The translations under genes were made by a program, and so were the position numbers. A stretch of 64,000 nt of DNA from Chrysomallon squamiferum (Eukaryota; Animalia; Mollusca), in NCBI GenBank assembly GCA_012295275.1, contig CM022677.1, positions 19,468,001-19,532,000 on the forward strand. The letters run 5' to 3'. How positions within the stretch are numbered: position 1 is the stretch's first letter; each line of letters starts with the position of its first letter. Positions 1 to 32,716 of the stretch are shown piece after piece. The notes beneath the pieces were generated by a model. The model worked only from the letters and a program-made list of their open reading frames with translations. It ran no database searches and was not told where the DNA came from.

Positions 1-1990
1 TAATAATAATAATAATAGTAACAGTAATTATAATAAGAAGAATAAGAAGAATAACAATAATAATAATAATAACAACAATAATAATAGTAATAATATTATA
101 TAATAATAATAATAATAATGTTGATGATGATAATTATGATGATGATAATGAGAAGGAGGAAGATGATGAAATAATGAAAAAGTAACAAATCAAGAACAAA
201 TGAGTTGTTAAATGCTTATTCTGCTTTCGGTTGATGTTACATAATCGATTTAGGAACAATGCGCTCCCCCTCTGAATGTTAGAAAGAAACCAGATGTATG
301 CACAGGCCAAGTTCATTATATACAGAGGTAATCAGGTATTGCGGTAAACCAGATTTTTCTACGAAATGGGAATTATACGAACTGGGAATCTACCAAATGG
401 GAAGACACCGTCGATACAAATGTAAGAACGCTAGGAGCGCTCGCTACCCCTCAGCTCATTCAGTTACCTTTTCTGTACAACTGGAAAGGTCTGACTCTGT
501 TTAAAATGATTATGTTTGCTCATGTTTAAAATAACTTGGCTATGTTTTTCTCCAATGTTCCTGCTTTTAACATACACATTATAGCACCTGTATATCGAAA
601 TCGCTGTAAGTTGTTTCCTACAAGGCCAAATCGCCATATATTTTATATGCAACTAAAAGACCCTGTGTTGTTTTTAATAATTATATTTCTATGTTGGTTA
701 TATTAATAACTTGTAGGATTCATGTTTTATTGTTTTGACTTTTACTTTATATAAGTTCTGAAATAAATGAAGTAACATTTTTTTGCCAATGGAATACATT
801 TTAATTTGACATTTTCACCAAAATGATTAGCATTGCTAACAAGTGGACAGTACATTTCACTCGATTGGGGAAAATGCTGAGCTATCCATAATATTGTGCA
901 TGTGTATTTGCAAACGGGCAAATTTAAAAAAAGAAAAAAAAAAAAAAAATGAAGAAAACAACAAGAGAAAATCCCAAGCAGAGAAAACGAAATACAAGTA
1001 TGGAGTAAGAAATCAAGAACGAAAAATTGAAAATGACTGATTTCTACGAATTACTGACTCTTTCATTTATTTATTTAAAAACAAAAAAAAAGACGTTTGC
1101 AAGAAATAGACATAGATTGAATAGTTCGAGTTACCTAAATGTTTCTGATATACATGTGTAATTACTTATGTCTGTATGTTTCTGTGTGTATGTGTGTGTG
1201 TGTGCGTTTGTGTGTGTGCATACTTGCTTCTGTGCAGGTATATATGTGTGTATCTCTATTCTTGTATGTGTGAGTGTGTGTGTAGGGATGCTTATTTGAC
1301 GCTAAATGATTTTATAACATTTGTGTTCAAAAGAAACCTTTTGTCTCTGTGATAAAAATTAAAATGTCATTTCATTCATAGAAACAGTTGTTTGTGTTTG
1401 TATGCAGCCTTATTTTTATATTTCAACTGGGAATTTTATGACATTTTTGTCCTGGATAGTGTGCTTCGACAGAATTGAAGAATTAATATTAATAAAAATA
1501 AATAAATAAACAGGTCGATCATCACTGATCCGACAGTCACTTAAACTGGTTGGTTCGGTAGTCGGGCACAAATTTTTGATAACATTTGATCTTGCTGCAT
1601 AAACACTGCTAGCATCACTTGCAAACATTGTCATTAATAGGTATTCATTTACTGTTGTATCAGGAATGATGCACTTTAAATCCCAGAGAATTAAAAAGGC
1701 TGTATTTGTTTATGAACTTGTAAAGGGACATGTTACAATACAAATATCATACAGATAAAATTATTGATTATAAATAAAAAATAAACACAATATAAACAAA
1801 TAAAATTGAAAATGAAAGTATTAAAAATTGAATTTTAAAACGTCACTTTGACGTAATGTAGTTAATTAGTTTCTATATTATATTAATAATGTATCGGGTT
1901 CAGGGTTTGCTTACTTAATTATAAAGTGTTTCTTTTTTCATCTTTATTAACAGACTAATTAATGAACCCTGTCTGCTCCGTTTTTCAGAA

Positions 1991-2992
1991 ATGGCCAAGA
2001 GTAGAAGGAAGTCAAGAAAAGAGCTGAATTTCAGGACAAAGCAATGGGAACATTTCCTGTGTGCTCTAACCCCGAAAAGATCGCAAACAGCAGCAGCTTT
2101 CAGGAAAGAATTTCAGGAACCAGAAGATTCTGGCACTTCTCTCATTTACAAAAAAATTTCCAGAATAATGTCTACCGAATACACATTGTTCAAATCTTGC
2201 AACAAGTGGAGTTTAACGGACTTCAGTAAATGCATTGGTTTCCATGATTTAGGAAAACTGAATACTGGGACAAAAGAAGTCACTCTGGAATATTCATTGG
2301 AATCCATTATTAAAGAAAATCTACAAATGTTCCAGATTGGTTCGGAAAGGCCTAATATTGATGACGTCCTCAAGAAAAAGGTCGATGTAAGAACATTTAT
2401 AGACTCCATACTTCGGAAATTATGTACAAATCTAGACTTTGGTGTCAGACTAGAAAACAAACCGGACTCAGGTGATCTTCCCGGTTGCAAGTTTGATTAT
2501 CTAGTCTTTAACCATAGCGGAAAACCGATCGGTTGCGTAGAAACGAAAAAACCTTCCGAAATAAATAGTAAAGCATTTGTTCAAGCAGTCCTCAAACTTT
2601 TTGTTTTACAGAAAATTGCTAGCGAAGAAAACGTCGACGTTAGAAAAGTACCGTTATTCAACATTTTGACAGACGGTCTGAGGTTTGTCTTGCTTCAAGT
2701 AAAAGGAGATAAACTACTGGTGGAACAGAATGAACAAAACAAACTGAAAATTCGTACAGTCAAGGAAGACCTATTGCAGGAACAGAATGAACAAAGTCAA
2801 ACCGATGGAGTCCTGGAATCCATTTACAGGCTGATTCAAACGAGTGTTGACGCATCTGTTGAAATACCACAGACTCGTAATATAAATTCTAGAAATTTGA
2901 AGGGTTTTACCATTTTAAACCTACATTGGATGGATTGGGTGTTTTTACACCAACCTGAAGAATTATTTAGCAGCTGTGAAAGTAGTGATTGA
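1991..2992 (+). CDS. PD-(D/E)XK restriction-endonuclease-fold protein (HsdR-N / CR-REase-like), paralog A, 333 aa, single coding exon
   Basis: Long non-repetitive ORF. Motifs RLE..SGDLPGCKFDYLVF..PIGCVETKK (E..D..ExK), FVQAVLKL helix and PLFNILTDGLRFVLL. Splice acceptor CTCCGTTTTTCAG ends at 1988, 2 nt before the ATG. Basic N-terminus MAKSRRKSRK. ORF conserved in paralog B. Confidence 0.8.
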   Translation: MAKSRRKSRKELNFRTKQWEHFLCALTPKRSQTAAAFRKEFQEPEDSGTSLIYKKISRIMSTEYTLFKSCNKWSLTDFSKCIGFHDLGKLNTGTKEVTLEYSLESIIKENLQMFQIGSERPNIDDVLKKKVDVRTFIDSILRKLCTNLDFGVRLENKPDSGDLPGCKFDYLVFNHSGKPIGCVETKKPSEINSKAFVQAVLKLFVLQKIASEENVDVRKVPLFNILTDGLRFVLLQVKGDKLLVEQNEQNKLKIRTVKEDLLQEQNEQSQTDGVLESIYRLIQTSVDASVEIPQTRNINSRNLKGFTILNLHWMDWVFLHQPEELFSSCESSD

Positions 2993-4030
2993 ATCACTGT
3001 AGTTTTTCTTATGAAAATTTAGTTATTGCAATTGTTGTCTTTTGTGCAGATATTCTCTATGTATCTCTAATGTATTTATCTTAATTTTTTTATTAACATA
3101 CTAAGAGCATTACTAATTATTCAATGGATATAAGTTGCATTAAAATTATTTTACTAAATTTTATATTAATAAATAGTGTTATCTTTATACAGAAAATATA
3201 GTTATATTTTCGATAATAGAAATAAATATCAGATGCTTAATAAATTAATATCCTTGTAATAAACAATGTCAATATATAAATTATTAACTGTGGTTGTAGA
3301 TCCTTTTATTATTTCAGTGAGTGTCTGTGTGTTAAATTATAACATTTATTACCATTCATTTAAATGCAGGCGTTCTTTTGTAGTCTGATTCTATAGGTTA
3401 AAATGTATTTACCAGTTTATAACTTTGGTGATATGGATCTGTGAACAAATATTACACTGTGACTTGCATGTTTTCATATTTTATATTATCATATATTTAA
3501 CATTGTATTATACGTTTGAATGTGCTGTGTACAAAACTCTCGTGTTTGATCACTTATCAAAATGATATGAACTTTGCACTTGTTATCTTTATATAAGTTT
3601 TCACATTTACTTATCTTAACTGATGCATTTTAAAACTAGACATACAGTCTAATCACATGTAAATAAAATATATACAGTGCCAGGTATCCGACATCACAAA
3701 TTTGTGTGCGCAAACCTAAATAACTGGAAACCCTAGATATTTGTATGAAATGTGGCAGACTTTTTTTTGTCCTTTGGTTATCTTGCAGCAGTCGAGTACA
3801 CATGGAAATATCGAACTCCAACATTCTCGTCTGCGAACAAATGAATATTTTGTACATTGGTCAGCAAGAAGCAAAACAACATAAACAGGCTTTATAAGGG
3901 TCAACAATGTTAATTTACTGCTTTTCAAGCGTATATGACTTTGAATCTAGCGCCAGATATGAAGTATGTTCTTTGTCCCCCTCTGTCATTCATACGTACA
4001 AAAAAAAAATAGTTAATAACTGATACAATC

Positions 4031-4685
4031 AAAAACGCGACTAGACACTAAACTACAGATCTCACAGGAGATCTATACACATTTGTTTTAAATTCGGGTG
4101 TTAGAGATCATGTTTCTTCTTTTCTTTATTATCCACGTTCAAGTTAGTTCCATCAAGGACTGATTCACAATAGTCACAGAGGAGGGGAACAGGGCCAGTA
4201 CTGAGCATTCAGTGTGTTTAGTATGAATAAAACGACAAATGTAATTTTGTTTGGAAAATGTTATTATTTATCTATTTATTTACAAGTATTTTAAAACAAA
4301 AATGTATTCTTTGTAGTTTTGTTTTTTCGTTTATTCAGATGATTATAAATTGATGATAAGTAATGTAAGATATTTATAAGTATAATTAAACAACTAAATG
4401 AGTCAAAACAACGAAAGTGAACGTTATACATGAGTAAACAAATAAAATGTAATCTGATTACTATTGTATGTTGTATTTACGTTAGTCTTTAAAAACAGCC
4501 GGTATTTTCAAAACCAGACTAGATGTGAAAGTGGATACATCACTGGAGATCTACTGACACGTGTTTTAAATCCGGGTGTTAGAGATCTTGTTTCTTCTTT
4601 GTTTTACTCTGCACGTTCAAGCTGGTGTGAAAAAAGGGCGAATCACAATAATTACAGAGGAGGATGACAGGGTCGGTACCTACAC
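4031..4685 (+). repeat. Two diverged copies (~4031-4205, ~4510-4685) of a ~175-bp element, also present at ~12843-13022 and ~13326-13505
   Basis: Shared core GACTAGA..GGAGATCT..TTTTAAAT(T/C)CGGGTGTTAGAGATC(A/T)TGTTTCTTCTT..CGTTCAAG..ACAGAGGAG..ACAGGG.C.GTAC. Confidence 0.8.
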
Positions 4686-4689
4686 ACAA

Positions 4690-4744
<55 letters not shown>

Positions 4745-5344
4745 TTACTATTATTATTTGTTGATCTTTTCTTCTTTTTATTTGTTTCTATTTTTTTAAT
4801 TGTTATTTATTTACTTATTTTTCACAATAATAATAACAACAACAACAACAACAACAACATCAACAACAATAAAATAATAATAGTAAAGACTGATATCGTT
4901 TTTCTTGTGAAATTAAATAGTGAGATACATGTTTTATTTAGTCAACTTATAAAATATATATTCTTATAATGTAATGAATTTAACAGTTAATATTATTTAT
5001 TTATTTATTTGTAAGGAAATGAAGCGATAAAATACATAAATCTCAATATTTTTATACATTATTATTATTATTACTACTACTACTCTGTGCACGTGACTAA
5101 AAATCATGCGTTCATTTTCTGTCCCGTTTTCCACTCGTACAGTTTATTTATACCGCCAGTTCACTATTCAAGTTTAAACAAGATATATCTTTGTTCGCGA
5201 AGTGTATTAACTTACACTGTCATTCTAAAAATTATTGTGACAAATTGTGAGAAATATTGTACAAAAGTGATTATTTATTTATTTATTATTAGTATTATTC
5301 TTTTATTTATTTACTTGACTGTCTGTTATTATCCGTTTTTATTT

Positions 5345-5414
<70 letters not shown>

Positions 5415-5687
5415 TTACTGTCGCTTTTTTTAAATTATTTTTATTTTTAATAATGTACACTGCTAGGAGAAACGTGTGGTGGTGTCACTAAAATTATACT
5501 GTGACGTGACACTTCGCAGAAAATAGAAGTGTATGACTTTCAAATTACAGCTATGACAATAACAATAAAAATAATAATACGAGATAATGTAATCTATATA
5601 CACATGTTCTACTTGCATACATACATAGATATATTGACACAGGCACACACACACACACACACAGACACACAGATATACACACACCAT

Positions 5688-5830
5688 CAGCGTACCTTGA
5701 CTTACGAGTGCACCAACTTACGAGTGTTCCGAGTTACGAGCAGTCGCCTGGTCGATTTTCTTGGTTTCAGTTCCGAGCCAAAATCCGAGTTATGATTGAG
5801 CTTCAGATACGCCGCTGGTAGTTGGCACAT
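5688..5830 (+). mobile_element. Terminal fragment of a Tigger/pogo-like (Tc1-mariner superfamily) non-autonomous element; shorter copy at 13748-13823
   Basis: CAGCGTACCTTGACTTACGAGT..AACTTACGAGT..GAGTTACGAGC resembles Tigger-type TIRs with repeated TTACGAG sub-motifs; CpG-rich against the background. No second TIR or transposase seen. Confidence 0.5.
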
Positions 5831-6179
5831 ATAGACTGATAGTTACACAAGTTTCATGCTTAAAAGGAGTAATTTAAATAAAAACAACAACAGCAACAAC
5901 AAAATGTATAATGATAAATAAATTAAGATATCGCTTTTATGTTTGAAAACCAAAAACAAAAAAAAAAAGATAAAAAAGAAGAACAGAAATGTATATAAAC
6001 AAAAATAATATATTTGAATAAATAAATGAATATTAAGGTCAGATAAAAAATAAATAAATAAGTAAATAAAAATTAAGATCAGATAAAACATAAATAAATA
6101 AAAAGTTTAAAAGAAAACTAAATTAAATTAAAAACGAAAGGTTAAGGTACTCTAATGAATATGTGTTCTTCTGCTAACA

Positions 6180-6750
6180 TTAAGTCTGTATATTTGTATA
6201 CGTATACATTTGCACAAAAACAACAATATTTTATAGAAATCAAGAATATAATGACATCGATTTCTACGAATGACTGACTCTTTCATTTCTTTATTTAAAA
6301 ACGAAACAAAATGCTGCCTAGAAACAGAGCTAGTTTGAACAGTTCGACTTATGTACATATTTGTGATAATCGTGTATAATAATATAACGTACGAAGATAG
6401 ATAACTCTAGTAGTATAGATATTTTCAAACCTGCTTCGATCTGTAATCGATGTATAAATTACATTCCTCAGTGTAGAAATTATATCACTTCAACTTTAGC
6501 CAGGTAAGTTTAATCTGTTTAATATATTATATTTTATGCTCTAAGAGTATAGTGTGTGTATCTCTCTGTGTGTGCATCTGTTTGTGTCTGTACGTACTTA
6601 GCTTGGGTTTGTGCGCAGGTGTATAGGTATAAAGGTATGGTTACTTTAGAGCTATCAGAGGGCTTGGGAGTCTACACTGACAAGTACAGGCCTGTGTGTA
6701 AGTGAATATTTCAACTAGGAGTTTTATAACATTTTTTTTTCTGGATATTG
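6180..6750 (+). repeat. Older, more diverged third partial copy of the upstream/intronic part of the duplicated unit (cf. ~900-1320 and ~8900-9490)
   Basis: Shared blocks AGAAATCAAGAA, GATTTCTACGAAT.ACTGACTCTTTCATTT, GAACAGTTCGA, TTCAAACCTGCTTCG, TCACTTCA.CTTTAG. Confidence 0.7.
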
Positions 6751-6770
6751 AATTATTAGAAAAAAATAAA

Positions 6771-6837
<67 letters not shown>

Positions 6838-7427
6838 GAAATACAAATAATAATAAATTTATAAGTTCTGGTTTAGTTGTCAAAGATTTGATCATGTTTT
6901 ATTTTGACGTGCTGTGCCACTAGTGACCTGTTCAGTTGTCGTATTAATACAAGTATCAACGCCACCATTTTCCACTGTCAAAGCTGGGTGTGTGACGTCG
7001 TAACTTAGACGGCCTCCTCACAGTAGTGCACATTTTTCTCTAGCGCACTAAAACAAATAATAATAATAAATAAGTAAATGAATAAAAATAAGAATAATAA
7101 AAACTTTAAAAAAAATACACCTGTAAATAATAAAATAATAAAATAAAAATAAATATATAGATAAATAATAATGAAACAAAACAATATGAAAATAACAACA
7201 AAAACAACAATAAATAAATAAATAAATAAATAAAAAAAATTAATACATCTGAATACGTCTATATAAATTATGGGTTTAAAGTAGGAAGGAAACAAGAAAT
7301 GTGATATTTTTCAGGTCGTACAAAGAAAGAAAGAAAGAAAATAAGCAGGAAATAATTGTTTCTTATCTCCTGTTGTATCTAAATGGTGTTATGGTTAACA
7401 TTGTTACAGTTTACAATGTTTAGGGGA

Positions 7428-7641
7428 ACCGGAATAAGAAAGTGTTATATGACGTCACTGGGAACGTGCGTTAGTTTTTCTTCGTAGCCATTTTTGAAAC
7501 GAAATAAATTGTTTGGAAACTCAAACGAACTTTATGTTTTCGTGTTAAAACATAACATGTCCCACCTACGCTTAAAAGTTTCATTTTAGGCAGTTCAAAT
7601 ATTAAGTAATCTGTAAAATTTGTTCTGAGAATAAGGTAAGT
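7428..7641 (+). promoter_or_regulatory. Candidate TATA-less promoter and non-coding first exon, probably of nuclease gene B
   Basis: ETS-like ACCGGAA (7428), perfect CRE TGACGTCA (7450-7457), YY1-like GCCATTTT (7487-7494), local CpG enrichment, strong donor AAG|GTAAGT after 7635. Confidence 0.55.
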
Positions 7642-8110
7642 AAATTTATTCCTTTTTTGTTACAACAACGGTCGATAAATGACCCTGGGTCAAAAGAGTG
7701 TCGACTTAACTATTGCGGTCGAATGTTGACATTTGTAAAATAAATAAAAATAATACAATTTGCTGATACTCATTTTTAATTTATATGTATATATCATTTT
7801 ATATTCTATTTGAACTTTAATGAAAGATTATACGGATTATTTGAAATACTAGTAACTAAAAATTCCATTTAATGCCAGCAAAATATAGTTAGTTCTGTAG
7901 CAGTGGTAAACAGTAGATGGGGGGGAGAGCAAGGGCCATAGGGAATCAATTCCAGTTTACTGGTCTAGTTCTATGTGAGGGTCATATTCGCCAGAGATCA
8001 GTCTCTTCCATTCGAACGTCTTCACAACAACTGCTGGCCTGTCAGATAGTGTGCATGTCGCAACTCGCTCTGATTAGCACGTTAATTTTTTTCATTTCTT
8101 TCCATTCCAG

Positions 8111-8387
8111 AAATCAGTCTCTTCCATACAAACGCCATTACTGCAGGAAAACATATATCTGACTTTTCATCCAGTGGAATCCGCCCTTTTAATATATCAA
8201 AAACGTAGAGAGAGAAAAAAAATACGCCTGGAAATTAAGAAGAAAACGTCTGTCTGAAGAAACGAAAGCGAAAGACGCTAGAGCCAGGAAGCACAAGTCA
8301 AAGGAGCAAGGCAGGCACACAACAGGACCAATCCGGAATTGAACAACAATATTTTGCGTTGGGCGCAGGAAAAATCAGTGAAAAACG
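8111..8387 (+). other. Candidate non-coding 5'UTR exon of nuclease gene B
   Basis: Polypyrimidine acceptor TTTCTTTCCATTCCAG ending 8110; donor ACG|GTGAGT after 8387; stops in all three frames. Confidence 0.45.
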
Positions 8388-8428
8388 GTGAGTTAGATAC
8401 TTCTACTGGGTATTGTAAAAGTGGTTGT

Positions 8429-9647
8429 GTCGATACAAATGTAAAAAAGCTAGGAGCGTTTGCTTCCCCTCAACATATTCAGTTACCTTTTATGTACAAC
8501 TGGAAAGGACTGACTCTGTTTAAAATGATTGTTTGTTCATGTTTAAAATAACTTGGCTGTATGTTTTTCTTCAATGTTCCTGCTTTTAATATACACATTA
8601 TAGCTCCTGTATATCGAAATCGCTGTAAATTGTTTCCTACAAGGCCAAATCGCCATAGATTTTATATGCAACTAAAATAATATGTGTTGTTTTGAATAAT
8701 TATATTTCTATGTTGGTTATTTTAATAACTTCTAGGATTCATGTTTTATTATGTTTTGACTTTTACAGTATGTAAGTTCTTAAATAAATGAAGTAACATT
8801 GCTTTGCCGATAGAATACATTTTCACAAAAATGATTAGCATTGCTAAGAAATGGTCAATATATTTGACGAGATAGGGGTAAATGCTGAGCTATCCATAAT
8901 ATTGTGCATGTGTATTTGCAAAGGTGTAAATTTGCACAAAAAGAAGAAAAAATCCCAAGCAGACAAAACGAAATACAATTTCGTTTCCAAGAAGTATTGA
9001 GTAAGAAATCAAGAACGTAAAATTGAAAACTGATTTCTACGAATTACTGATTCTTTCAAACGAAACAAGACGTTTGCAAGAAATAGACGTAGATTGAACA
9101 GTTCGAGTTACCGAAATGTTTCTGATATACGTATGTAATTACTTATTGACACGGATAACAGCAGTAGTTAAGAAATCTTCAAACCTGCTTCGTTTCTGGA
9201 AAATGATCTTGAAAATCCGTACGTGAACGAATAAATTACATCACTTCAGCTTTAGTCAGTTAATTTTGTATCTAATTAGTATATATTACACTTTCTGTGT
9301 GTATGTGCACGTGTGGGTGTGGGTTTCTGTGTGTGTGTGTGTGTGTGTGTGTACTTGTTTCTCTGCAGGTTTATATGTGTGTATATCTATTCTTGTATGA
9401 GTGTGGGTAGGTATGGTTATTTGACGCTAAATGCTCAGTTGGTACAGGAGATACATGTAACTGAATATTTTAATTAAGTATTTTATACATTTGTCTCTGT
9501 GATAAAAATTAAAATGTCGTTTCATTCATAGCAACAATTGTTTGTGTTTGTATGCAGCCTTACGCAAAAAATAATTTAAAAACAAAACCAACAATAATAA
9601 ATAAATAAACAGTTGCATCGTTTAATTTAATGCATATAAATTTGCAC

Positions 9648-9678
<31 letters not shown>

Positions 9679-9933
9679 AAATTGCCATAGAAAGCAAAAT
9701 TTGAATGTGATTTGCTGAAATAGGCAGTAAGATATCTGAAGCATTACGTAGCATTATCTACAAAAAAGATAAACCTAAAATGTCATTCAAAAACGAAACA
9801 CGATTTGAGTTATATAGGAGGGTGTATACTTGTTTTATCGCATTTATTTTTATATTTCAACTGGGAATTTTATGACATTTTTGTCCTGGATAGTGTGCTT
9901 CGACAGAACTGAAAAATTAATATTAATAAAAAA

Positions 9934-9972
<39 letters not shown>

Positions 9973-12097
9973 ACGAATAAATAAATAGGTGGATCTTCAC
10001 TGATCCGGCAGTCACTTAAACTGGTTGCATCGGTAGTCGGGCACAAATTTTGGATAACATTTGATCTTGCTGCATAAACACTGCTAGCATCACTAGGAAG
10101 CATGGTCATTAGTAGGTATTCACTTACTATTGTGTCAGGTAAGATGCACTTTAAAACTCAGATAACTAAAAATTCTGTATTTGTTTATGAACTTGTAAAG
10201 GAACATGATAAAATACAAATATCACACACATAAATTATTTATTATAAATTAGAAATAAACACAATATAAATAAATAAAATTGAAAATTAAAGTATTAAAA
10301 ATTGAATTTTAAAAGGTCACTTTGACGTCATGAAGTTAATTATTTTCATTTTTAGCTGAATAATAATATTGCGATTATTAACTGTCTCTCTGTATCTGTC
10401 TTTTCCTTTATTTCCTCTATTTAAAATATACCTTTAGTGTGTGATAAATAGAAATAGCCTAAATATTTATATCACTTACAAAATAATAATACCGTGTGTG
10501 TGTTGTTTGTAAGTTTAATAAAAATCCTTACATAGAAGTATTAAATCATTGCCAAAACAGCCCTCTCAGTTTGTCACTAATATATATTTTTTAATTTTTG
10601 TATTTATTATACATTTTATCTCTATATTATATTAACAATGTATCGGATTCAGAGTTTTTGCTTACCTATTAATTATAAAGTGTTTCTTTTTTTCAACTTT
10701 ATAAACAAACTAATTAATGAACACTGTCTGCTCCGTTTTCAGAAATGGGCAGGACAAAAAAGAAATCAGATAACAAGATGATTTCGAAACTTGAATTGTC
10801 TGACCTGATCGCAGAGGAAGAAGAAGTTTCCGACCTAAAACGTCAAGATCCAGCAGTTCCTTGCACTTCTCTTATTTACGAAAACTTTGCCACGAGAAAA
10901 GAAAGTAGAGATAAAAATATTAAATCACGGAACAATCCTTGCAGCAAGTGGCATTTAAAGGACTTAAGAATATACATTTATTTGGATGATTTAAGAAAAC
11001 AGGATGAGAGGACAAATGATGTCATTCTGTCCTATTCACTGGAATCCATTATTAATGAAAACCTACAAATGTTCCAGATTGATTCGACAAAGCCTAAGAT
11101 TCGCGATGTCCTGAAGAAAGAGGTCAATGTAAGAATATTTATAAACTCCATGGTTCAGAAATTATGTACAAATCTAAAATTTGGTGTCGAACTAGAAAAG
11201 GAAAGGAAATCAGGTGATCTTCCCAATTGCAGGTTTGATTTTCTGTTCTATAACCATCGCAAACAACCCATCGGATGCTTAGAAACGAAACCATCTTCCA
11301 AAATGAATGATAATGCACTTGCTCAAGCAGTCCTCCAACTTCTTGTTTTACAGCAATTTGCCAGCGAAGAAAACGTCGACGTTACAAAAGTACCGTTATT
11401 CAACATTTTGACAGACGGTCAGAGGTTTGTCTTGCTTCAGGTGAAAGGAGATAAACTGTTGGTGGAACAGAATGAAGACAACAAACTGAAAATTCATAGA
11501 GTCAAGGAACACCTATTGCAGGAACAGAATGAACAAAGTCATACTGATGGAGTCATGGAATCCCTTTACAGGCTGATTCAAACGAGTGTTGACGCATCTG
11601 TTGAAAGACCTCAGACGACTTGACTCGTAACATAAATTCTGGAAACTTGATGGAATTGAGCATTTAAAACCTAAAATTGATAGAATGCTTGTATTAACAC
11701 TAACCTGAAGAATTATTTAGCAGCTGTAAAAGTAGTGATTGAATCACTGTAGCTTTTCTTATAAAAATTTATTTATTGCAATTGTTGTCTTTTGTGCAGA
11801 TATTCTCTCTGTGTCTTTAATATATTTATCTTAATTTTTTTATTAATTTACTAAGAGCATTACTAATTATTCACTGGATATATCATACTAAATTTTATAT
11901 TAATAAATGGTGTTATCTTTATACAGAAAATATAGTTATACATTCGATAATAGAAATAAATATCAGATGCTTAATAAATGTATCTATTAATAAATTAATA
12001 TCCTTGTAATAAACAATGTTTGGCATCGTCAAAATATAAATTATTAACTGTGATTGTAGATCCTTTTATTATTTCAGTGACCCGATTTCAAATGTAT

Positions 12098-12149
<52 letters not shown>

Positions 12150-13823
12150 AATTATAACATTTATTACCATACATTTAAATTCAGGCGTTCTTTTGTGTGA
12201 TTCTATAGTTTAAAATGTATTTACCAGTTTATAACTTTGGTGATATGGATCTGTGAACAAACATAACACTGTGACTTGCATGTTTTCATATTTTTTATTA
12301 TCATATATTTAACATTGTATTATACGTTTGAATGTGCTGTGTACACAACTCTCGTGTTTGATCACTTATCAAAATGATATGAACTTTGCACTTGTTCTCT
12401 TTATATAAGTTTTCATATTTACTTATTTTAATTGATGCATTTTAAAACTAGACATACAGTCTAATCACACGTAAATAAAATATATACAGTGCCAGGTATC
12501 CGACATCACACATTTGTGTGCGCAAACGTAAATAATTGGAAACCCTAGATATTTGTATGAAATGTGGCAGACTTGTTTTTGTCCTTTGGTTATCTTGGAG
12601 CAGTCAATTACACATGGAAATATCGAACTCCAACATTCTCGTCTGCGAACAAATGAATATTTTGTACATTTCTCAGCAAGAAGCAAAACAACATAGGCAG
12701 ACTTTATAAGGGTTAAACAATGTTAATTCACTGCTTTCCAAGCGTATATGACTTTGAATCTAGCGCCAGATATGAAGGATGTTCTTTGTCCCCCTCTGTC
12801 ATTCATACGTACATAAAACAATAGTTAACAACTGATACAATCAAAAACGGGACTAGACATTAAACTACAGATCTCATAGGAGATCTATACACATTTGTTT
12901 TAAATTCGGGTGCTAGAGATCATGTTTCTTCTTTTCTTTATTGTGGACGTTCAAGTTAGTTGGATCAAGGGACTGATTCAGAATAGTCACGGGGGAGGGG
13001 GGAACAGGGCCGGTACTGAGCATTCAGTGTTTTTAGTTTGAAGAAAACGATAAGTTTATTTTTTTTGGAAAATGTTATTATTTATCTATTTATTTACAAG
13101 TATTTTAAAACAAAAATGTATTCTTTGTAGTTTTGTTTTTTTCGTACACTTTTATTCAGACGATGATAAGTTGATGATAAGTAATGTGAGATATTTATAA
13201 GTATAATTAAACAACTAAATGAGTACAAACAACGAAAGTGAACGTTATACATGAGTAAACAAATAAAATGTAATCTGATTACTATTGTTGCATTTACGTT
13301 AGTCTTTAAAAACAGCCGATGTTTTCAAAACGTGACTAGAAGTGAAACTGGATACCCCACTGGAGATCTTATACACGTGTTTTAAATCCGGGTGTTAGAG
13401 ATCTTGTTTCTTCTTTGTTTTACTCTGCAAGTTCAAGCTGGTGTGAGAAAAAGGGCGAATCACAATAATTACAGAGGAGAAAACATACAGGGCCGGTACT
13501 TACACACAAGACATTACGTTATTATTATTATTATTATTATTATTATTTTACTGTCTTTTTTTTTTTTTTGTTAGTTTGTTTTTAATAATTAATATTAAGA
13601 CGTCATACTTCGCAGAACTTAGAACAGTACATAAACAAATCAGTTTCAAATTAACAGATATGACAGCAAAAACGATAAGACGAATAAAATAATACGTGAT
13701 AATGTTATCTATATACACATATTTTACTCACACACACACACAGACAACGTACCTTGACTTACGAGTGAACCAATTTGCGCGTTTTCCGAGTTACGAGCAG
13801 TCGCCTGGTCGATTTTTTGGTTT
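8429..13823 (+). repeat. Segmental direct duplication, copy B; contains nuclease gene B
   Basis: Collinear with 410-5767 at an offset of ~8.0-8.8 kb. Confidence 0.95.
10745..11623 (+). CDS. PD-(D/E)XK restriction-endonuclease-fold protein (HsdR-N / CR-REase-like), paralog B, 292 aa, single coding exon
   Basis: Motifs KKEVNVRIFIN (helix-1 Glu), ELE..SGDLPNCRFDFLFY..PIGCLETK, LAQAVLQL, PLFNILTDGQRFVLL. Acceptor CTCCGTTTTCAG ends at 10742, 2 nt before the ATG. Basic N-terminus MGRTKKKS. Confidence 0.82.
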   Translation: MGRTKKKSDNKMISKLELSDLIAEEEEVSDLKRQDPAVPCTSLIYENFATRKESRDKNIKSRNNPCSKWHLKDLRIYIYLDDLRKQDERTNDVILSYSLESIINENLQMFQIDSTKPKIRDVLKKEVNVRIFINSMVQKLCTNLKFGVELEKERKSGDLPNCRFDFLFYNHRKQPIGCLETKPSSKMNDNALAQAVLQLLVLQQFASEENVDVTKVPLFNILTDGQRFVLLQVKGDKLLVEQNEDNKLKIHRVKEHLLQEQNEQSHTDGVMESLYRLIQTSVDASVERPQTT

Positions 13824-14559
13824 GTAGGTTAATACAAATTGGAATATTAAAAAGAAAGAGTCAATAGTTAAATAAATAAATAAATAAATAAACAAACAAA
13901 CAAATGAGATAATTTGTAATTTAAATTTTTTGTTGTTGCGTTTTTTGTTTTTTTTTAACTAACCTCTGCAAGAACAAGGGACAAACATTTGTTTCACAAT
14001 GTGTTTCTCTTTTTTATAAATTTTGCTGCTTCAGTTTTGTCTCAGATCATCGGCAGAAAAATTCAAATATGGTGTTGAAAGTAAATGAACTGATATGTGT
14101 TTGCGATTTGTTGAGAACATAACAAATTATGTAATATTTGTGTTTTCTATTTACAGTTATGTAGGCTTTGCTACATTATTGTGTCACCCATATCAAGACA
14201 CTTTGTAATAAAAGTAAATAAATACTGTTTGTATTGTTTTTTTTAATACCTTGAACCTCAAAGCCCATTTGTGCAAATCATGGTTATGTCAACCTAGATT
14301 TAACTTAATTCCACATTTTTTTTATTCATTATTATTATTATTTTTTTTTTTTTAAAAGAAACGAAAATAATATTAATAATAAAAATAAAATAAAAAAGTT
14401 CTATTCAATGCATTCAATAATTTATCTAATTACAGCAGCTATCGAATTTGAGCAAGATTCCTTTTAAGATTTTGGCCTAAATAACAAATATCAATGTGTG
14501 AATTAATAGCCCAACAATTAACGTCTGGCCTCCAGTTGTGTTGTTAAATAATCTTAACA

Positions 14560-16780
14560 ATTTGTAATAAAAGTAAATCAATACCAGTTCTATAATAAAA
14601 AAAGAGAGGAAAACCAGGGAAGATGGAATTATTAAAACACTGAAGTGGTCCTGAAGTGAACACTGTTCACACTGAACCATTGCACTTTTTACCTCTTGCC
14701 CTGACAGATACAATCTTCTTCACTGTTTCTGTCCTTCATTTTGAATACCTCTTGCCCTGACAGATACAATCTTCTTCACTGTTTCTGTCCTTCATTTTGA
14801 ATACCTCTTGCCCTGACAGATACGATCTTCTTCACTGTTTCTGTCCTTCATTTTGAATACCTCTTGCCCTGACAGATACAATCTTCTTCACTGTTTCTGT
14901 CCTTCATTTTGAATACCTCTTGCCCTGACAGATACAATCTTCTTCACTGTTTCTGTCCTTCATTTTGAATACCTGTTACAATCTTCTTCACTGTTTCTGT
15001 CCTTCATTTTGAATACCTTTACGATCTTCTTCACTGTTTCTGTCCTTCATTTTGAATACCTCTTGCCCTGACAGATACAATCTTCTTCACTGTTTCTGTC
15101 CTTCATTTTGAATACCTCTTGCCCTGACAGATACAATGTTCTTCACTGTTTCTGTCCTTCATTTTGACATCAGGTGTCCTTCAACATGCGGCTAAAAACA
15201 AACTGTTTGACATTTCCTCTGTTCTGTGACCATATAACATGTAACCTTTTTTCTATTATTATTATTATTTTTTTTTTTTTTTCATTATTCTGCCAACGAA
15301 GATTTTCTTCAACCATACCATAAGGACCACTTGGTTTAAGACCTCTTTCAATTTCCCCTGGGCATGCACGTCTTTAATACTTACCTATAAGTTTGTAGTC
15401 ATGACCAGAAATATTTTCATTTCAACTTACTTCATGGTAGCTACAAATGCCTCGGACATTACCCCGATCTTCCATCCACATTACATGCAGTTTCTTTCTG
15501 TTCTTCAGGTTATTCGCCATCTTCAGTCTCTTAGTGGCTCTTCCTAGTAGACCATCTTCTTTGTACACGGACAGATTTTTTTCTCCTGTACAAACTGCCC
15601 ATAAATGTTGACTGATCTTTCTGTAGTCCAACTTACTTGTATCACGCTTTTTCTTTTTCTCATTTGAAATCTTCTTCTCTCCACCTTCATGATTAACATT
15701 CTGCAACACAACAGAAGTAGATTTGTATGGGGGGAAAGAAGAAAAGAAAAAGAAAGTGATTTCCTTGACCATGAGTTACATTTAATACAGTCAGTTTTAA
15801 TCAAGTTGAAATTTTTCCTTTTCTGCAGTCAAAGCTGCTCAGAACATAACTAATGTAACAATAGATAACACATTTTTGTTTCAGTGTTTCTTAAATCAAA
15901 TTTGATGAAAACAATTTCATCTGTATTTATTATATGTGGATGAAAATAATACTTACTTTACTTACATACAACATAATTTTAGCTTGTAAATAAACAGTAT
16001 TTACTCCCAGATCAAGTCCCATCAGACTGAAAAACAAATTTATAATTTCACATGTTTGTTTCTAGGAAATGAGAAACTTTAAGAAAAACAGAAACAATTG
16101 TTATACTGCTACACCCAGTAAAATGCACTAAAAAAGATATAAATAAATGAATGGCACTGAAGAATGTAAATGTTTTTCATAATTCTCTGAGTCAGTCTAA
16201 ACATATGTATACAGTGATAGAATGAGAAATAAATGAATGGATGATAAAAGAATAAAATTAGATAGAAAGATAGAAACACATATACACAAAAAAAAAAAAA
16301 AAAAAACATTTTACATGTGTATATATATATATATTGTGAGAATGAACTAGTAAAGTCTGATGCTACATTGTCAAGAAGTATTTTCTTTTAAGAAATATAA
16401 AATATCTTTTAACAATACTGCATGGTATTAGTGACTCACGTTTCAGTATTTGACAACAAACTTTGGTTAGTAGGAACCAAAACAATGTTTAAATAAATAA
16501 TCATTTCAAGCATTAACTTGTAAATTAAAAAAGACAACAACAACAACAACAACACAAAAAAACCCTTCCAAAACAGTGCAACTTAAACCTGTATTTTTCA
16601 TAAAGTGTACATGAATCATGTATAATCAACATTAGATGAAAAAAAACTTTAGAATAATAATAAAAACAAGTACAGCCATATAAAGACTAATGTATTTCTG
16701 AAGTGTAAACTTTAATATTTATACTTTATTATTAATTTTCATTTGCTGGCAAAAAGAAAAAACATAAAAATAAAAATAAA

Positions 16781-16838
<58 letters not shown>

Positions 16839-18800
16839 TTAAATGAAAAATAAAAAAACCCAAATAAAACAACTGGTAAGAATGCAAAATATATATGAAA
16901 ATTGTGTAAATATCAGCAAAGGACACTTTAACTATGAACGAATTCTTTATCTGAACATTATCAGTTTTGTCTTGTAACTAAGAACTAAATGAGTTTGCAT
17001 GATTTTGTAAATCACATGAAATTATTTATTTATTTATTTATTTTTGTGGTCATAACTATATAAAATGCTACACTATAGCAAAATAACAATCCCATCATAA
17101 AACTGAACTAGCTGATACGTGAAACATTTATCAGCATGTTTTGGTTATTAACTGGTTAACTGTAAGAAATATGAACAAACGAAAAGGAAGGTAAACAACT
17201 GAACATTTATAACAGTAAATGAATCAATGTAACAAGTCTTTTGTTAATGATTTTATCACCCATTTTGAAGCATCACATCTTTCATTACTGGCTTCTGTTG
17301 ATAGACAAATGTTTATCTCAGTAAAAGAACTGACAGCAGAAATGTGTGTCAAACATATACTTTTTAAACTATATATGACTTATAAATGTAAAACAAAAGT
17401 TGGATGTAGGCTTCAACTGAGTGTAATTGTGTACAGGTGTGTGTGAATGGGGAAAAAAAGCATCAATATAATCTTACCTGAGATTTTCTCTTCTTCACTT
17501 TTTCCCATAATGGGAAATCATTATCATAATCATCAGAGGTATGATCTTCTGGTGTAACTGTCTTCCATAAACACTGTCCTCAAAAAGGTGCCCTTCCTCA
17601 CAAGTCTGATCTTCATCTGACATACCAGTCTGAAATGTTTCATTACAGTCTTGTTAAAAAAACAAAAACAGAATCTGACAAAAAAAATATCCTTCATCAC
17701 AGCAAAGTACATGAACACTGTTCTTACATAAAAGTAAAAAAAAAAAAAAAAAAAAAATAAAAATAAAAACTTAATATTATAAATAAATAAATAAAAATAT
17801 TTAATATAAATACCTGAAGTATGTCATCCCATCTAAATGTCACATCCATTCTGACATTTTCCACTTTTCATTTGCTGCAGAAATAAAGTGAAGAAATATC
17901 TGAATTGATACAACTTATTATAATATTATGAAAAAAACCCTATAGAAACAATGATACATGAGAAGCAAATGTGAAAATTAAGAATGTGCCTATGATCTGC
18001 TCATGAAAAAGGTAACAAACAGCAGAAATAATAGTGAAGTGCCAGTTCTGGAATAACAATTAGTGAAAATTCATACTCACAAATAAAGTTTATTAGAATT
18101 ACTGATACGAGTAAGAACATAAACAGAAAGAACATTACCTACACAAAATAATGTGTCAAAAGATGTTCAAGACTCTAATCTAAATTAAATTAGAAAAAAG
18201 GAAATAAACAGCGACTCTTGTAAAAACTTGCCTTATCATCTACAACAGGTTCCATGTGCAGTTGAGGCCAATCACTTTCAACATAGCTGAAAAGAGCATA
18301 GATTAAAATATTGCAAAAGTCTGTGCAGTTCCTGATACTACATACTAATATGGTTTATACCACATATAGAGATTTATGTCACAGCATTTAGTTCTGTCTG
18401 CAAAAGGAAGATCAATGTAGCTAATGACGACTTACATGTGCACACTCTGGAAAACCCCCAGTGCCCTTAAACCAAGTTTCTTGATGCAGATGTCCATGCA
18501 TTTTCTGAATGTGCTCTTATTATGGATTAGACGATATATAGTTATTTATGTTATAGCATTTAAGTGTCTGTTAGTCACAACTGAAGTGGTTTATAGTCCA
18601 TTTATTGAAGCATAGTTAAGACATTCTGTTGTTAAATGTATTTTCAATAGCCAGACATAAGGTTATGATACACTTTTTGAAATAGGATTAACTTTAAACT
18701 TACGTGAATGCCTTCAATTCTTGAAATAGATTCTTATCATTAACAGACTTCTGCTGCCATCTACTTTTTATAACCAGTCTCGAAAAGGAACGACTGGAAT
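14560..18800 (-). pseudogene. Multi-exon gene of unknown family, apparently disrupted. Candidate exons 18800-18704, 18504-18436, 18286-18232 (GC donor), 17874-17814, 17629-17478, and 15700 to ~14560; encodes two tandem related domains and a degenerate PHD-like finger
   Basis: Each block has an AG acceptor and a GT/GC donor, and the blocks join to ..KSVNDKNLFQELKAFTKCMDICIKKLGLRALGVFQSVHIYVESDWPQLHMEPVVDDK... Frameshifts are needed in 17874-17814 and 17629-17478. In-frame stops at 15424-15422, 15376-15374 and 15172-15170. Confidence 0.55.
14691..15166. repeat. 56-bp minisatellite, 9 units (2 internally deleted)
   Basis: Unit ACCTCTTGCCCTGACAGATACAATCTTCTTCACTGTTTCTGTCCTTCATTTTGAAT at 14691, 14747, 14803, 14859, 14915, 14971 (short), 15015 (short), 15058, 15114. 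Confidence 0.97.
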
Positions 18801-19216: not shown

Positions 19217-19536
19217 ATGAGTTTTCTTCACCTTGTAGAAAAACTGTTAATAACTTTGACTTTGGAAATATGTCTGCTCGCAACATGTTTATTTGGAGAC
19301 ACCATTATCTCGATTTTATCACCTACCAGGTCAAACGAACCGGATTTATTATGGATGCGCGCAGTCGTTGATAGTGCTACGCATGGTTTCGTGGCTTTTT
19401 TTTCGTGGGCTATTGTCGAATTGACATCATTAGGTGACATAAATGCGATAACTTTTATAAACTGCGGTATATGTGCTGGACTTGCAGTGATGGTTGATTT
19501 GGATCACTTTATGGCAGCCAGGTCGTTCCATATTAA

Positions 19537-19537
<1 letters not shown>
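19217..19537 (+). CDS. TMEM267: Transmembrane protein 267, coding exon 1
   Basis: RAVVDSATHGFVAFFSW and AVMVDLDHFMAARSFHIK match TMEM267 (human RALSDNAVH..SW, SVIDVDHFFLAGSMSLK); phase-0 donor AAG|GTGAGA. Confidence 0.93.
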
Positions 19538-20240: not shown

Positions 20241-20543
20241 GATGCTATGAACCTTAGCAACAGGCCTCTTTTCCATGCAACCACAGTGATTCCAACCATC
20301 TTCTTCCTGCTCATCATCTGTGGACAAGTTCTGAAATCAAACAGGCTGAAATATCTTTCTTTTATATTTGTCTTATCTTGGAGTTCTCACCACGTAAGAG
20401 ATGCCACGAGGAGAGGTTTGTGGTTACCTCCCTTTGCCAGCTCTCCACCTATCCCGTACGCTATGTATGTATTTCTGATAATGTTTTTACCTTTGTGTGT
20501 CAGAGGCGTTATTAAGTTTTTGGGTGTGTGGGAGATTTTGTGA
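20241..20543 (+). CDS. TMEM267: Transmembrane protein 267, coding exon 2 (spliced protein 207 aa)
   Basis: Acceptor TTTTATAG|GAT; RPLFHATTVIP and SWSSHHVRDATRRGLWLPPF match human RPFLHCSTVIP and [20 protein letters not shown]. Confidence 0.93.
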   Translation, partial: DAMNLSNRPLFHATTVIPTIFFLLIICGQVLKSNRLKYLSFIFVLSWSSHHVRDATRRGLWLPPFASSPPIPYAMYVFLIMFLPLCVRGVIKFLGVWEIL

Positions 20544-24342: not shown

Positions 24343-24573
24343 TCAGATATCTTCTTCACTTAAAGTAATCTGCGCAGCTGGCGAAGACAAGCTCCTCTGC
24401 AGGTCGTCGTCGCCAAGGCGAATGACCTCGCCTCGTTCACTGATGTACGACTGGTCGAAGCTGTCCATGCTGTAGTTGAAGTCGCTCATGCGCGACGCGC
24501 GATGTTCGGGTGATTCCCGGTCGTGCGCCGATGTTGTTGCTATGCTGTGGTCGCTGACGCTCTTCTCGGAAAC
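24343..24573 (-). CDS. CEP78: CEP78 terminal coding exon (VSEKSVSD..LSEEDI*)
   Basis: Acceptor TTTTCTCTTCAG|GTT, phase 0, open to TGA; GC-rich coding island; assigned by position in the exon chain. Confidence 0.8.
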   Translation of the reverse strand, partial: VSEKSVSDHSIATTSAHDRESPEHRASRMSDFNYSMDSFDQSYISERGEVIRLGDDDLQRSLSSPAAQITLSEEDI

Positions 24574-24855
24574 CTGAAGAGAAAAATAAGTAAACAAAGA
24601 AACAAAGAAAATAAAACAGTAAGTATATAAATAAATAAATAAATAAATAACCAAATAAATAACCAAATAAATAAATATATAAATAAATAAAATAAAATAA
24701 AAAAAATATATATATGTTTTTATGTATGTCTGTTATTGTGTGTTCACATATATACATATATATATATATTTTATATATTTTTGAATTAAAAACTCCCAAA
24801 AATTAATATTAATAATAAATAACAATAATTTAAAAAAAAAAAAAATAATATTCTA

Positions 24856-24956
<101 letters not shown>

Positions 24957-25325
24957 AAGTCAATGTTGAAAAACTACATGAAAATCTAACTTTTATACTA
25001 AATATGACATAAAAAAAAAAATAGGCTGACATTATAACCCGAATGACCCTGCTGACCTTTGAACTCTTGACCCCATTGTTTTCACTGGTTTCTGTTTTGT
25101 CTGTGATTCTTCTGTCTGTCTGTGCCAAATCAGCTTGTTTCATCTGCTCATTGTTCAAGTCCTGACTGAAATCCTAAAACACACAAAAAAAAAAAAAAAC
25201 ATGTAAATTTAAAAAAAAAAATTAAAAAAAAAGAAGACAAAAACCCCCATAAATTTAAAAAAAAACAGGACAAAAAAATTTTTTTTTTTTTTTTTTTTAA
25301 ATAATTGAAAAAGAAACAAATACAT

Positions 25326-25379
<54 letters not shown>

Positions 25380-25537
25380 GTGTCTTAACAAATAACAACA
25401 AACAACACAAAAACCACAAAGGTGAGAGAAAAAAAAAAAAAACCCACCCCCTCCTCTTTTCAAAAACCAACCAAAAACGTCTCCAACCCACCACCGAGAA
25501 AACCCCCCCAAAAAATCCCATTCCAACTCTGTCTCAC

Positions 25538-25774
25538 CTGCGACTCGTCAAACATGGACATGTTTGTGGGTTTGATGGGAGAGGGGTGGGGGGCTTCGAA
25601 CCCAGGCCCCTGTGTGGCTGAAGACAGCGTTGGCCCTGCGCGACGTTCTCTCGAACAGGTCGTCAGGCTTCCTCTGCCTCGCATCGTTGACAGCATCGTC
25701 GTCAACATCGTTGTACTTCATTGTCGGGTCTTTGAGGTGTGCGTTGCCTGGACGAATGTTGTTTCCTGCAACAC
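25538..25774 (-). CDS. CEP78: CEP78 internal exon (GVAGNNIRPGN..MSMFDESQ), apparent frameshift as assembled
   Basis: Acceptor TTTACTCAG, donor CAG|GTGAGA; GC-rich; length 237 does not fit phase 1 to phase 0. Confidence 0.65.
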
Positions 25775-25784
25775 CTGAGTAAAA

Positions 25785-26165
25785 TTATAGAACAACAATC
25801 TGATGTAAATAATAAAGTTTTTTAAAGTTATAGAACAACAATCTGATGTAAATAATAAAGTTTTAAAGTCCTAGAACAACAATCTGATGTAAATAATAAA
25901 GTTTTAAAGTTATAGAACAACAATCTGATGTAAATAATAAAGTTTTAAAGTTATAGAACAACAATCTGATGTAAATAATAAAGTTTTTTAAAGTTATAGA
26001 ACAACAATCTGATGTAAATAATAAAGTTTTTTAAAATTATAGAACAACAATCTGATGTAAATAATAAAGTTTTTTAAAGTTACAGAACAACACACTGATG
26101 TAAATAATAAAGTTTTAAAATTATAGAACAACAATCTGATGTAAATAACAATGTTTTTTTTAAAG
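25785..26165. repeat. 41-43-bp minisatellite, 9 units, abutting a CEP78 acceptor
   Basis: Unit TTATAGAACAACAATCTGATGTAAATAATAAAGTTTT(TT)AAAG. Confidence 0.95.
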
Positions 26166-26497
26166 ATAATAGTGATAGTAAATTACTAAGTTACTATTAC
26201 TGCCTTCTTACTGTTGGTATTATTACTATTGTTACTACCACGATTGCTAATATTTTATTACTAATACGATTACATTACTAATACTATTACATTACTACTA
26301 GTACCTTAAATATTACTACCATTACTGTATGATTATTATTACTACTACTACTACATTACTACTACCACTATTACAAATATTCCTGCTACTACATTAGTAG
26401 TATTGCATTATTACACTTACTAATATTACTAAAACCACTACGTTACTAATAATACTACTACTTACACCACTACAGGTGCTAGTACTATAATTATACT

Positions 26498-26549
<52 letters not shown>

Positions 26550-26631
26550 GTAATAACAATGATAACTGATAATTAATAATATCAATGATAATAACAACAA
26601 CAATAATGATAATAATAATAAAAAAGAATGG

Positions 26632-26674
<43 letters not shown>

Positions 26675-26770
26675 GGTAATAATAATGATAGTGATAATGA
26701 TAATAATAATGATAATGATAATAATAATGATAATGATAATAATATAATAATAATACTAATGATAATGATA

Positions 26771-26802
<32 letters not shown>

Positions 26803-26877
26803 GATAATAATAACGATAATAATAATAATAATTATAATAATGACAATGATAAAAATAATGATAAAAATAATGATAAC

Positions 26878-26927
<50 letters not shown>

Positions 26928-26945
26928 CAAAGATAATAAAATTAC

Positions 26946-27369: not shown

Positions 27370-27431
27370 CTGAAATTGTTTGAAATTAAAAAAAAAAAAA
27401 ATATATATAAAAATATATATATATATACATA

Positions 27432-27517
<86 letters not shown>

Positions 27518-27704: not shown

Positions 27705-27811
<107 letters not shown>

Positions 27812-28493: not shown

Positions 28494-28524
<31 letters not shown>

Positions 28525-30852: not shown

Positions 30853-30883
<31 letters not shown>

Positions 30884-32670: not shown

Positions 32671-32716
<46 letters not shown>

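Follow-up and report, generated by a model that had tools for sequence, protein, structure and literature searches.

A 64,000-nucleotide stretch of the genome of the mollusc Chrysomallon squamiferum (GenBank assembly GCA_012295275.1, contig CM022677.1, forward-strand positions 19,468,001 to 19,532,000), here called the window and numbered from its first letter, contains two genes, copy 1 and copy 2, whose proteins resemble the N-terminal nuclease domain of the restriction subunit HsdR. Our results suggest that they are tandem duplicates belonging to an old family of solo proteins with the restriction endonuclease (REase) fold, and that copy 2 is a nuclease of defence or conflict, acting on invading nucleic acid or on the cell's own; this reading as a whole we hold about as readily as its opposite. 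Its parts differ in strength. That copy 2 has the REase fold is, from the predicted structure, very nearly certain; that it is catalytically active is probable, judging from the residues it retains; and a role in defence or conflict, argued by analogy, could go either way.

Copy 1 (1991-2992, protein P0001, 333 amino acids) and copy 2 (10745-11623, P0002, 292 amino acids) lie on the plus strand, are free of stops, and are the only two long open reading frames (ORFs) of ordinary composition within 1-15000. A first-pass annotation of this DNA had reported both intact ORFs and a particular order of motifs, and we find the two frames and exactly that order: KVDVRTFIDS, LE, FDYLVF, PIGCVETK, VQAVLKL and NILTDGLRFVLL in copy 1, and EVNVRIFINS, LE, FDFLFY, PIGCLETK, AQAVLQL and NILTDGQRFVLL in copy 2. 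The motifs are not there by chance, because the same columns are near-invariant among 120 homologs. The two proteins are 64% identical over 258 amino acids. Copy 1 has 38 extra amino acids at its C-terminus, homologous to DNA past the stop of copy 2, where the corresponding frame has three stops. The tandem expansion that had been proposed is evident in blastn, where duplication unit 1 (410-4746, plus strand), made up of intron, coding exon and 3' non-coding DNA, is homologous to unit 2 (8429-13566, plus strand); the blocks 410-1169, 1166-1412, 1410-1890 and 1872-4746 match 8429-13566 at 75-84%, gaps included. Blastn also finds partial duplicates, with 6235-6593 repeating intron DNA of 9004-9354 and 5677-5767 matching 13734-13823, and a 170-nucleotide element (4032-4202 and 4510-4679) occurs twice in the 3' flank of each unit.

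A single-sequence word search found one homolog among 1010 candidates, and a broad alignment with a word filter found six among 7986. A profile seeded with copy 1, copy 2 and the one word-search homolog was run with HMMER over 1.84 billion sequences and returned 121 representatives at E<=0.001. The alignment of 120 sequences omits the short or partial matches P0100, P0118 and P0124 and the duplicate P0004. In copy 2 numbering its near-invariant columns are E126, D165, G177, E180, K182, Q194, L199 and an aromatic residue at 166, followed in conservation by R130, E151, P160, W69, Q198 and D224. The glutamate of the first helix, E126, is kept in 110/116 members, D165, E180 and K182 each in 117/120, E151 in 102/119 and Q194 in 115/119; the E-D-E-K-Q set as a whole is intact in 100 of the 115 scorable members, changed in 15, and gapped in a further five. 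Copy 2 has the full family site (E126, E151, D165, E180, K182, Q194, Q198 and D224). Copy 1 keeps the D, E and K of the PD-(D/E)XK site and the first glutamine (D169, E184, K186 and Q198). It has lysine at two other positions of the family site, K130 where the helix glutamate would be and K202 at the second glutamine, a column that is Q in 103/117 members. The helix motif that the first-pass annotation had written with either E or K is therefore present as such, and its K marks where copy 1 has lost a glutamate that the rest of the family largely keeps.

Upstream of the nuclease core the members share an S-L helix and an S-D-x4-S-x-W-T segment, and the linker differs in length by hundreds of residues. 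An N-terminal helical motif, W-x-x-F-L-x-x-L, is found in 37/94 members, as against 1.4 in shuffled sequences. Copy 1 has it ahead of its PD-(D/E)XK domain and copy 2 has lost it. In P0009 from Haliotis cracherodii (XP_071086571.1) the W-x-x-F-L and S-L motifs stand at the C-terminus, behind the nuclease domain; this is either a permuted gene or a gene model that fuses two tandem copies. The basic, nuclear localization signal-like N-terminus described earlier is real in both copies. It is shared by only 5/94 N-terminally aligned members, copies 1 and 2 included (net charge of at least +4 in the first 15 amino acids), and a localization signal was rejected as a trait of the family.

An AlphaFold model of copy 2 (predicted local distance difference test, pLDDT, 82.8; predicted template modelling score, pTM, 0.83) has a restriction endonuclease core, in which DSSP assigns helix 126-144, strands 147-154, 162-169 and 175-181, helix 189-208 and strand 218-223. 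This is the helix, three-strand meander and helix of PD-(D/E)XK proteins, with E126 on helix 1, D165 in the second strand and E180-x-K182 where the third strand ends. In a structural search of the model against 48,161 chains, four reach Z 8: 3j7y_5 (Z 13.6, 208 amino acids, 4.3 Å) and 7a5f_s3 (Z 12.6, 205 amino acids, 4.4 Å), which we take to be the mitoribosomal proteins mL37 and mL65, then DrdV (7lo5; Z 11.1, 139 amino acids, 2.7 Å) and BpuSI (3s1s; Z 10.3, 151 amino acids, 3.8 Å). V. vulnificus HsdR follows (3h1t; Z 7.7, 127 amino acids, 3.8 Å). A model of the coral homolog P0039 (pLDDT 91.9), which has much of its alignment in common with that of copy 2, gives the same ranking, with Z 12.7, 12.6, 11.4, 11.3 and 8.8, and matches the mL37 and mL65 chains over 191 amino acids at root-mean-square deviations (rmsd) of 3.4 and 3.6 Å. 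All of the top five matches of both models are REase-fold proteins, and Foldseek agrees, again with the mL37 and mL65 chains at the top. The matches to DrdV, BpuSI and HsdR bear out, as a predicted fold, the HsdR_N-like PD-(D/E)XK assignment first made from motifs. A viral structure library returned scattered PD-(D/E)XK nucleases (best E 2e-4, template modelling score 0.2-0.35). By sequence, copy 2 had 0 matches in the PDB, and the family profiles retrieved from PDB sequences only HsdR 3h1t, at E 0.15-0.23, together with coiled-coil noise.

Among known systems, the family is like HSDR_N in that E, E, D, ExK, the Q-helix and T(D/N)G-x-x-F are in register and the folds match at Z 7.7-8.8. Pfam gives no significant match for copy 1 or copy 2, and copy 2 has none in PADLOC, NCBIfam or PHROGs; NCBIfam and PHROGs match 0/120 members, and the PADLOC PD_DExK model matches 33/120. 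HSDR_N (PF04313) or HSDR_N_2 (PF13588) is found at E<=0.01 in 28/121 homologs, one of which reaches the gathering threshold (25.2 against 25.1) with 27 others below it. No second enzymatic Pfam domain at the curated cut-off, and no helicase, methylase, kinase, nucleoside triphosphatase (NTPase) or other resistance domain, was found by Pfam in the 121 homologs, which are up to 851 amino acids long. Unlike HsdR, then, the family is without helicase, HsdM or HsdS, has QxxxQ/E where HsdR has QxxxY, carries extra N-terminal helices and the S-D-x4-S-x-W-T segment, and is represented here by a spliced animal gene. A type I restriction-modification system was rejected, the proteins being single-domain and the window containing no such ORF. 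The bacterial sequences that came nearest are solo HsdR_N proteins from cyanobacteria, 160-210 amino acids long. Three of them (WP_015328625.1, WP_254035905.1 and WP_235752279.1) align with the family profile at an hhalign probability of 94.9 over 133 columns; they had been preselected as the best tblastn matches, and the E-value is not corrected for database size. In a tblastn search of plasmids with homolog P0093, eight weak cyanobacterial matches were obtained (E 0.07-0.7). On two Planktothrix plasmids (L001:2968-4646 and L003:2719-4544) after a solo HsdR_N gene come genes for a Uma2 endonuclease and a hypothetical protein, and on L003 this cluster sits between DUF1156 and DUF499 genes.

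DrdV and the type IIG enzyme BpuSI are the good matches of lowest rmsd (DrdV Z 11.1-11.4, 2.6-2.7 Å over 139-142 amino acids; BpuSI Z 10.3-11.3). Their nuclease is fused to methylase and recognition domains, and they are 14-17% identical to the family. The match to mL37 and mL65, at 9-10% identity, extends into the W-T segment, a part left uncovered by DrdV and BpuSI; the family differs from these ribosomal proteins in keeping its catalytic residues and has no common basic N-terminus. An alignment that starts from the W-T segment is likewise obtained with Uma2/DUF820-type proteins (1wdj, 3ot2), at Z 6-7. The family profile found no mL37 or mL65 chain among PDB sequences at E<=10, and their family is absent among the best 25 of 92 Pfam families. 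A review treats mL37 and mL65 as repurposed endonucleases that form a pseudo-dimer (PMC8998825). We treat the link to them as a lead and not as a result. A more far-reaching reading, in which animals and their unicellular kin retained these solo, catalytically intact nucleases as a cell-autonomous defence from a time before animals arose, and in which the family is also the living sister group out of which the animal proteins mL37 and mL65 were recruited with loss of catalysis, seems to us doubtful.

Parallels in eukaryotes also include effectors and drivers. Like the family, Crinkler (CR)/RHS-type effectors have a short helical N-terminal region followed by a eukaryotic REase domain. Some Crinkler-type proteins are said to have helical headers (PMC5289972), and CR-type genes to occur in free-living animals (AACRNL; PMC12957317). 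The family differs from them in lacking a ubiquitin-like header, LxLFLAK, NTPase or kinase. The mark of CR-REase7 and CifB, a histidine three residues past the active-site glutamate, and the N-terminal NTPase usual in the CR-REase7/CifB/Medea nuclease, both as given in PMC11342252, are missing here: neither copy has a histidine at +3 of E126 or E180, and none of the 121 homologs has an NTPase. The strand-1 glutamate that is a further feature of that nuclease is present (E151). The main risk to novelty is that the family may already be one of the CR-REase clades of Zhang et al. 2016, which we know through PMC5289972, PMC11342252 and PMC12957317. The Spok meiotic drivers of Podospora, as described in PMC6660238, are like the family in being eukaryotic, HsdR-like PD-(D/E)XK proteins in tandem and in several copies; they have QxxxY and a separate resistance domain, and the family has neither.

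Organism names were sought for 20 representatives, and one subclade was searched further (60 matches). Thirteen homologs were named, from Gigantopelta aegis (three), Haliotis (two), Crassostrea virginica, Lingula, Owenia, Lineus, Desmophyllum, Oculina, Salpingoeca kvevrii and Creolimax, that is, from gastropods, an oyster, a brachiopod, an annelid, a nemertean, corals, a choanoflagellate and an ichthyosporean. None of the 13 carries a functional annotation and none is bacterial. The closest are those of Gigantopelta aegis, at 33-40% identity, and paralogs occur elsewhere, three in Gigantopelta and two in Haliotis cracherodii. In a FastTree phylogeny of 116/120 sequences over 195 columns (midpoint root, local supports, four sequences with fewer than 120 core residues omitted), copies 1 and 2 are sisters (0.998) and group with the proteins of Gigantopelta and Haliotis (0.987); this gastropod clade joins one of Lingula, Owenia and oyster proteins in a lophotrochozoan grouping (0.963), and the coral protein is in a separate clade (0.968). 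This is consistent with vertical descent from a lophotrochozoan ancestor at least, and probably from earlier; the family likely goes back to early animals, and a bacterial source is plausible only in the distant past. It had been suggested that the nuclease was horizontally acquired or derived from a transposon in this lineage. Since the family occurs in several animal phyla as well as in a choanoflagellate and an ichthyosporean, and both copies nest within the gastropod clade, acquisition in this lineage is unsupported, whether by transfer or out of a transposon. A plasmid search with copy 2 gave no match at E<=1, and among 25 pattern matches in metagenome contigs and 108 in viral contigs, obtained with one or two patterns, none was confirmed. 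In the Atlas, the nearest clusters by features are hypothetical proteins of fungi (Mucoromycota and Ascomycota; 0.96); another near cluster (0.93) is cyanobacterial, and 22% of its members carry HSDR_N.

Both genes have an AG acceptor two nucleotides before the ATG, as had been noted, at 1987-1988 in copy 1 and 10741-10742 in copy 2, and for copy 2 its use is seen in RNA. Four public runs, three RNA-library runs from one study and one run of unrecorded kind, were compared as contigs against 10660-12070 only. One RNA contig (run X1, 232 nucleotides, depth 3.7) is identical to copy 2 over 10742-10930, and of the 43 letters of its loose 5' end, 29 of the 30 shown match 8357-8386. The contig joins 8387 to 10743, and copy 2 is therefore spliced over a GT-AG intron of 2355 nucleotides at 8388-10742 (plus strand). 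The exon upstream, at 8111-8387 (plus strand; 3' end from RNA, 5' boundary presumed from an AG at 8109-8110), is a non-coding leader, because it lacks an ATG and the coding frame is stopped twice within it; on these grounds a coding upstream exon was rejected. Of the host promoter and spliced 5' untranslated region that had been proposed, the spliced leader is thus seen in copy 2 RNA and the promoter is a candidate from sequence: with a TGACGTCA element near 7450 and a GT donor at 7636-7637, the stretch 7449-7637 (plus strand) may hold a promoter and first exon of copy 2. The GT at 344-345 (plus strand) aligns with the used copy 2 donor at 8388-8389 and is the likely donor of a copy 1 leader exon, and the copy 1 acceptor at 1987-1988 (plus strand) is presumably used as that of copy 2 is. 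An RNA-library contig, record 16 of run X4, fits copy 1, since it shows 24 differences to copy 2, against 25 for copy 1 itself, and its loose end is identical to 2438-2467; it is unspliced and may be DNA carry-over. Record 15 of X4 and record 3 of X1 have letters absent from both copies, and one paralog-type RNA contig has a loose end without a match in the window; there is therefore at least one further paralog. In run X2, several distinct contigs (at most five per place) with less than 90% identity cover the catalytic region over 10938-11603, pointing to more than three family copies or to divergent alleles, depth being no copy number.

Nowhere in the duplication do the two units differ more than in the coding exon. 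The non-coding DNA of both flanks differs between the copies by 0.05-0.10 per site, ungapped, a figure that gap-tolerant alignment lowers. Residues 37-200 change 3-5 times more than these flanks (nonsynonymous rate, dN, 0.31; synonymous rate, dS, 0.18; dN/dS 1.72; dN-dS<=0 in 1.3% of bootstraps), and for residues 201-292 dN/dS is 0.42. The excess in 37-200 fits diversifying selection.

We propose that D165, E180 and K182, with E126 and E151, would coordinate Mg2+ and carry out hydrolysis of a phosphodiester bond in the manner of HsdR and type IIG/IIL nuclease domains. Because there is no methylase, recognition domain, helicase or NTPase, cleavage by copy 2 would have low sequence specificity and would need restraint, likely by the W-x-x-F-L-x-x-L helix, the S-L helix, the S-D-x4-S-x-W-T segment or low expression. 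The basic N-terminus may send both copies to the nucleus. The target could be the nucleic acid of an invader, or the cell's own in a suicide response, and the excess amino-acid change in 37-200 may reflect shifting targets or inhibitors. Copy 1, having lost the helix glutamate, may be a weakened, retargeted or decoy paralog. Spok is reported to kill via its HsdR-like domain (PMC6660238, PMC9972908).

Several points weigh against this reading. The best structural matches are the non-catalytic mL37 and mL65, so the fold also serves plain RNA binding. In the column four past Q194, 103 of 117 members have Q, 11 have E and three have another residue, and the tyrosine of HsdR QxxxY occurs in 0/117. 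The splicing evidence is a single contig from a single study. Organism names cover 13 homologs, the remainder being unlabelled; the tree has no bacterial outgroup; and in it Lineus groups weakly with Creolimax (0.608) and not with the other lophotrochozoans. Over the whole gene dN/dS is 1.25 and the interval of dN-dS includes zero, residues 37-200 were picked after inspection of the data, and dS (0.17, from 12/66 four-fold sites) is about twice the divergence of the flanks; for these reasons the pattern could also arise under relaxed constraint or by conversion from a third paralog.

The strongest competing explanation, though we think it rather unlikely, is that the family has a housekeeping function in nucleic-acid processing or binding (repair, RNA maturation or an organellar role like that of mL37/mL65), and that the pair diverged under relaxed constraint after duplication. 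Its long vertical retention in the tree, its strongly conserved active site, the match to mitoribosomal RNA-binding proteins over 191-208 residues and a whole-gene dN/dS indistinguishable from 1 would all agree with this. Such a function is harder to reconcile with recurrent lineage-specific duplications, a linker varying by hundreds of residues, and amino-acid divergence greater than that of non-coding DNA; the 13 named homologs, a small sample, include no vertebrate, insect, nematode or yeast. Typical mitochondrial presequences are basic, and most N-termini of the family are not. It is less likely again that copy 2 is a germ-line or maternal toxin, with copy 1, in which the helix E has become K, or another paralog as its antidote. 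That an intact copy is tightly linked to an altered one and that the two diverge fast recalls Spok, Medea and Cif, as do killing by the HsdR-like domain of Spok and the REase domains of Medea and CifB (PMC11342252). No kinase, NTPase or other resistance domain is found in the 121 homologs, however, and the named members follow a species-tree-like order across phyla, which we would consider unusual for short-lived drivers. The change of the helix glutamate is also rare, in 6/116 members, and intact/altered pairs are thus not the rule.

An ORF or cargo of a transposable element, or a mobile effector gene of Crinkler/RHS type, is quite improbable. The single coding exon, the several copies and the fungal clusters nearest in the Atlas (0.96) are what such an origin might leave, and PMC5289972 links CR proteins to transposons. 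The window, however, has no transposase, reverse transcriptase or helicase ORF; the 25 longest of 1088 inverted-repeat pairs in 1-15000 all lie in ATT/AAT microsatellite tracts, so that no terminal inverted repeat is among them; intron and 3' flank were duplicated along with the exon, as in a product of unequal crossover; the leader is spliced; and the tree tracks host taxa for the named members. That the genes came recently from a bacterium or symbiont, or that bacterial DNA contaminates the assembly, we consider extremely improbable. Pfam relatives of the domain by sequence are prokaryotic HsdR_N proteins, and the HSDR_N group is given as essentially prokaryotic in PMC3424549. Recent transfer was nevertheless rejected for this lineage on the spliceosomal intron, the gastropod sequences that are its nearest homologs at 33-40% identity, and the tree position; the plasmid search with copy 2 and the pattern searches of viral and metagenome contigs described above yielded no source locus, and the surrounding DNA is animal in context and rich in microsatellites.

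The window is AT-rich and rich in microsatellites, without N. The absence of partner enzymes noted in the first-pass annotation holds among its long ORFs, none of which is a methylase, helicase, reverse transcriptase or transposase. Two exons of a membrane protein lie at 19217-19537 and 20241-20540 (plus strand); neither alone has a Pfam match, and from the motifs DSATHG and DLDHF we take the gene to be TMEM267-like. Several short exon-like frames at 15425-18270 (minus strand) are head-to-head with this gene, and the longest has no Pfam match. Exons of a leucine-rich-repeat protein, presumably CEP78-like, at about 24346-42470 (minus strand) have weak matches of that repeat type only, and this gene supports an ordinary animal chromosome context. 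A tandem array at 14690-15167 has a unit of about 56 nucleotides in several copies, 85-99% identical by blastn.

The suggestion that the family is undescribed is supported in what was covered: literature on HSDR_N in eukaryotes and metazoa, on defence and expansions, and on CR-REases, covered by title and start of abstract or by passages, contains no account of it that we could find, nor did we find literature tying MRPL37 or MRPS30 to restriction endonucleases. The genes would then represent an old and apparently undescribed family of solo HsdR-like nucleases, likely defensive. Invertebrate immunity is not recognised to include restriction-like nucleases that have intact sites and no modification partner. 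The family consists of single-domain proteins with a core of about 250-300 amino acids, present in molluscs, worms, corals and a choanoflagellate, which should make expression and assay easy. The donor of the repurposed endonucleases mL37 and mL65 is unnamed in the passages available of PMC8998825, and the family, whose range overlaps, is a concrete candidate for it.

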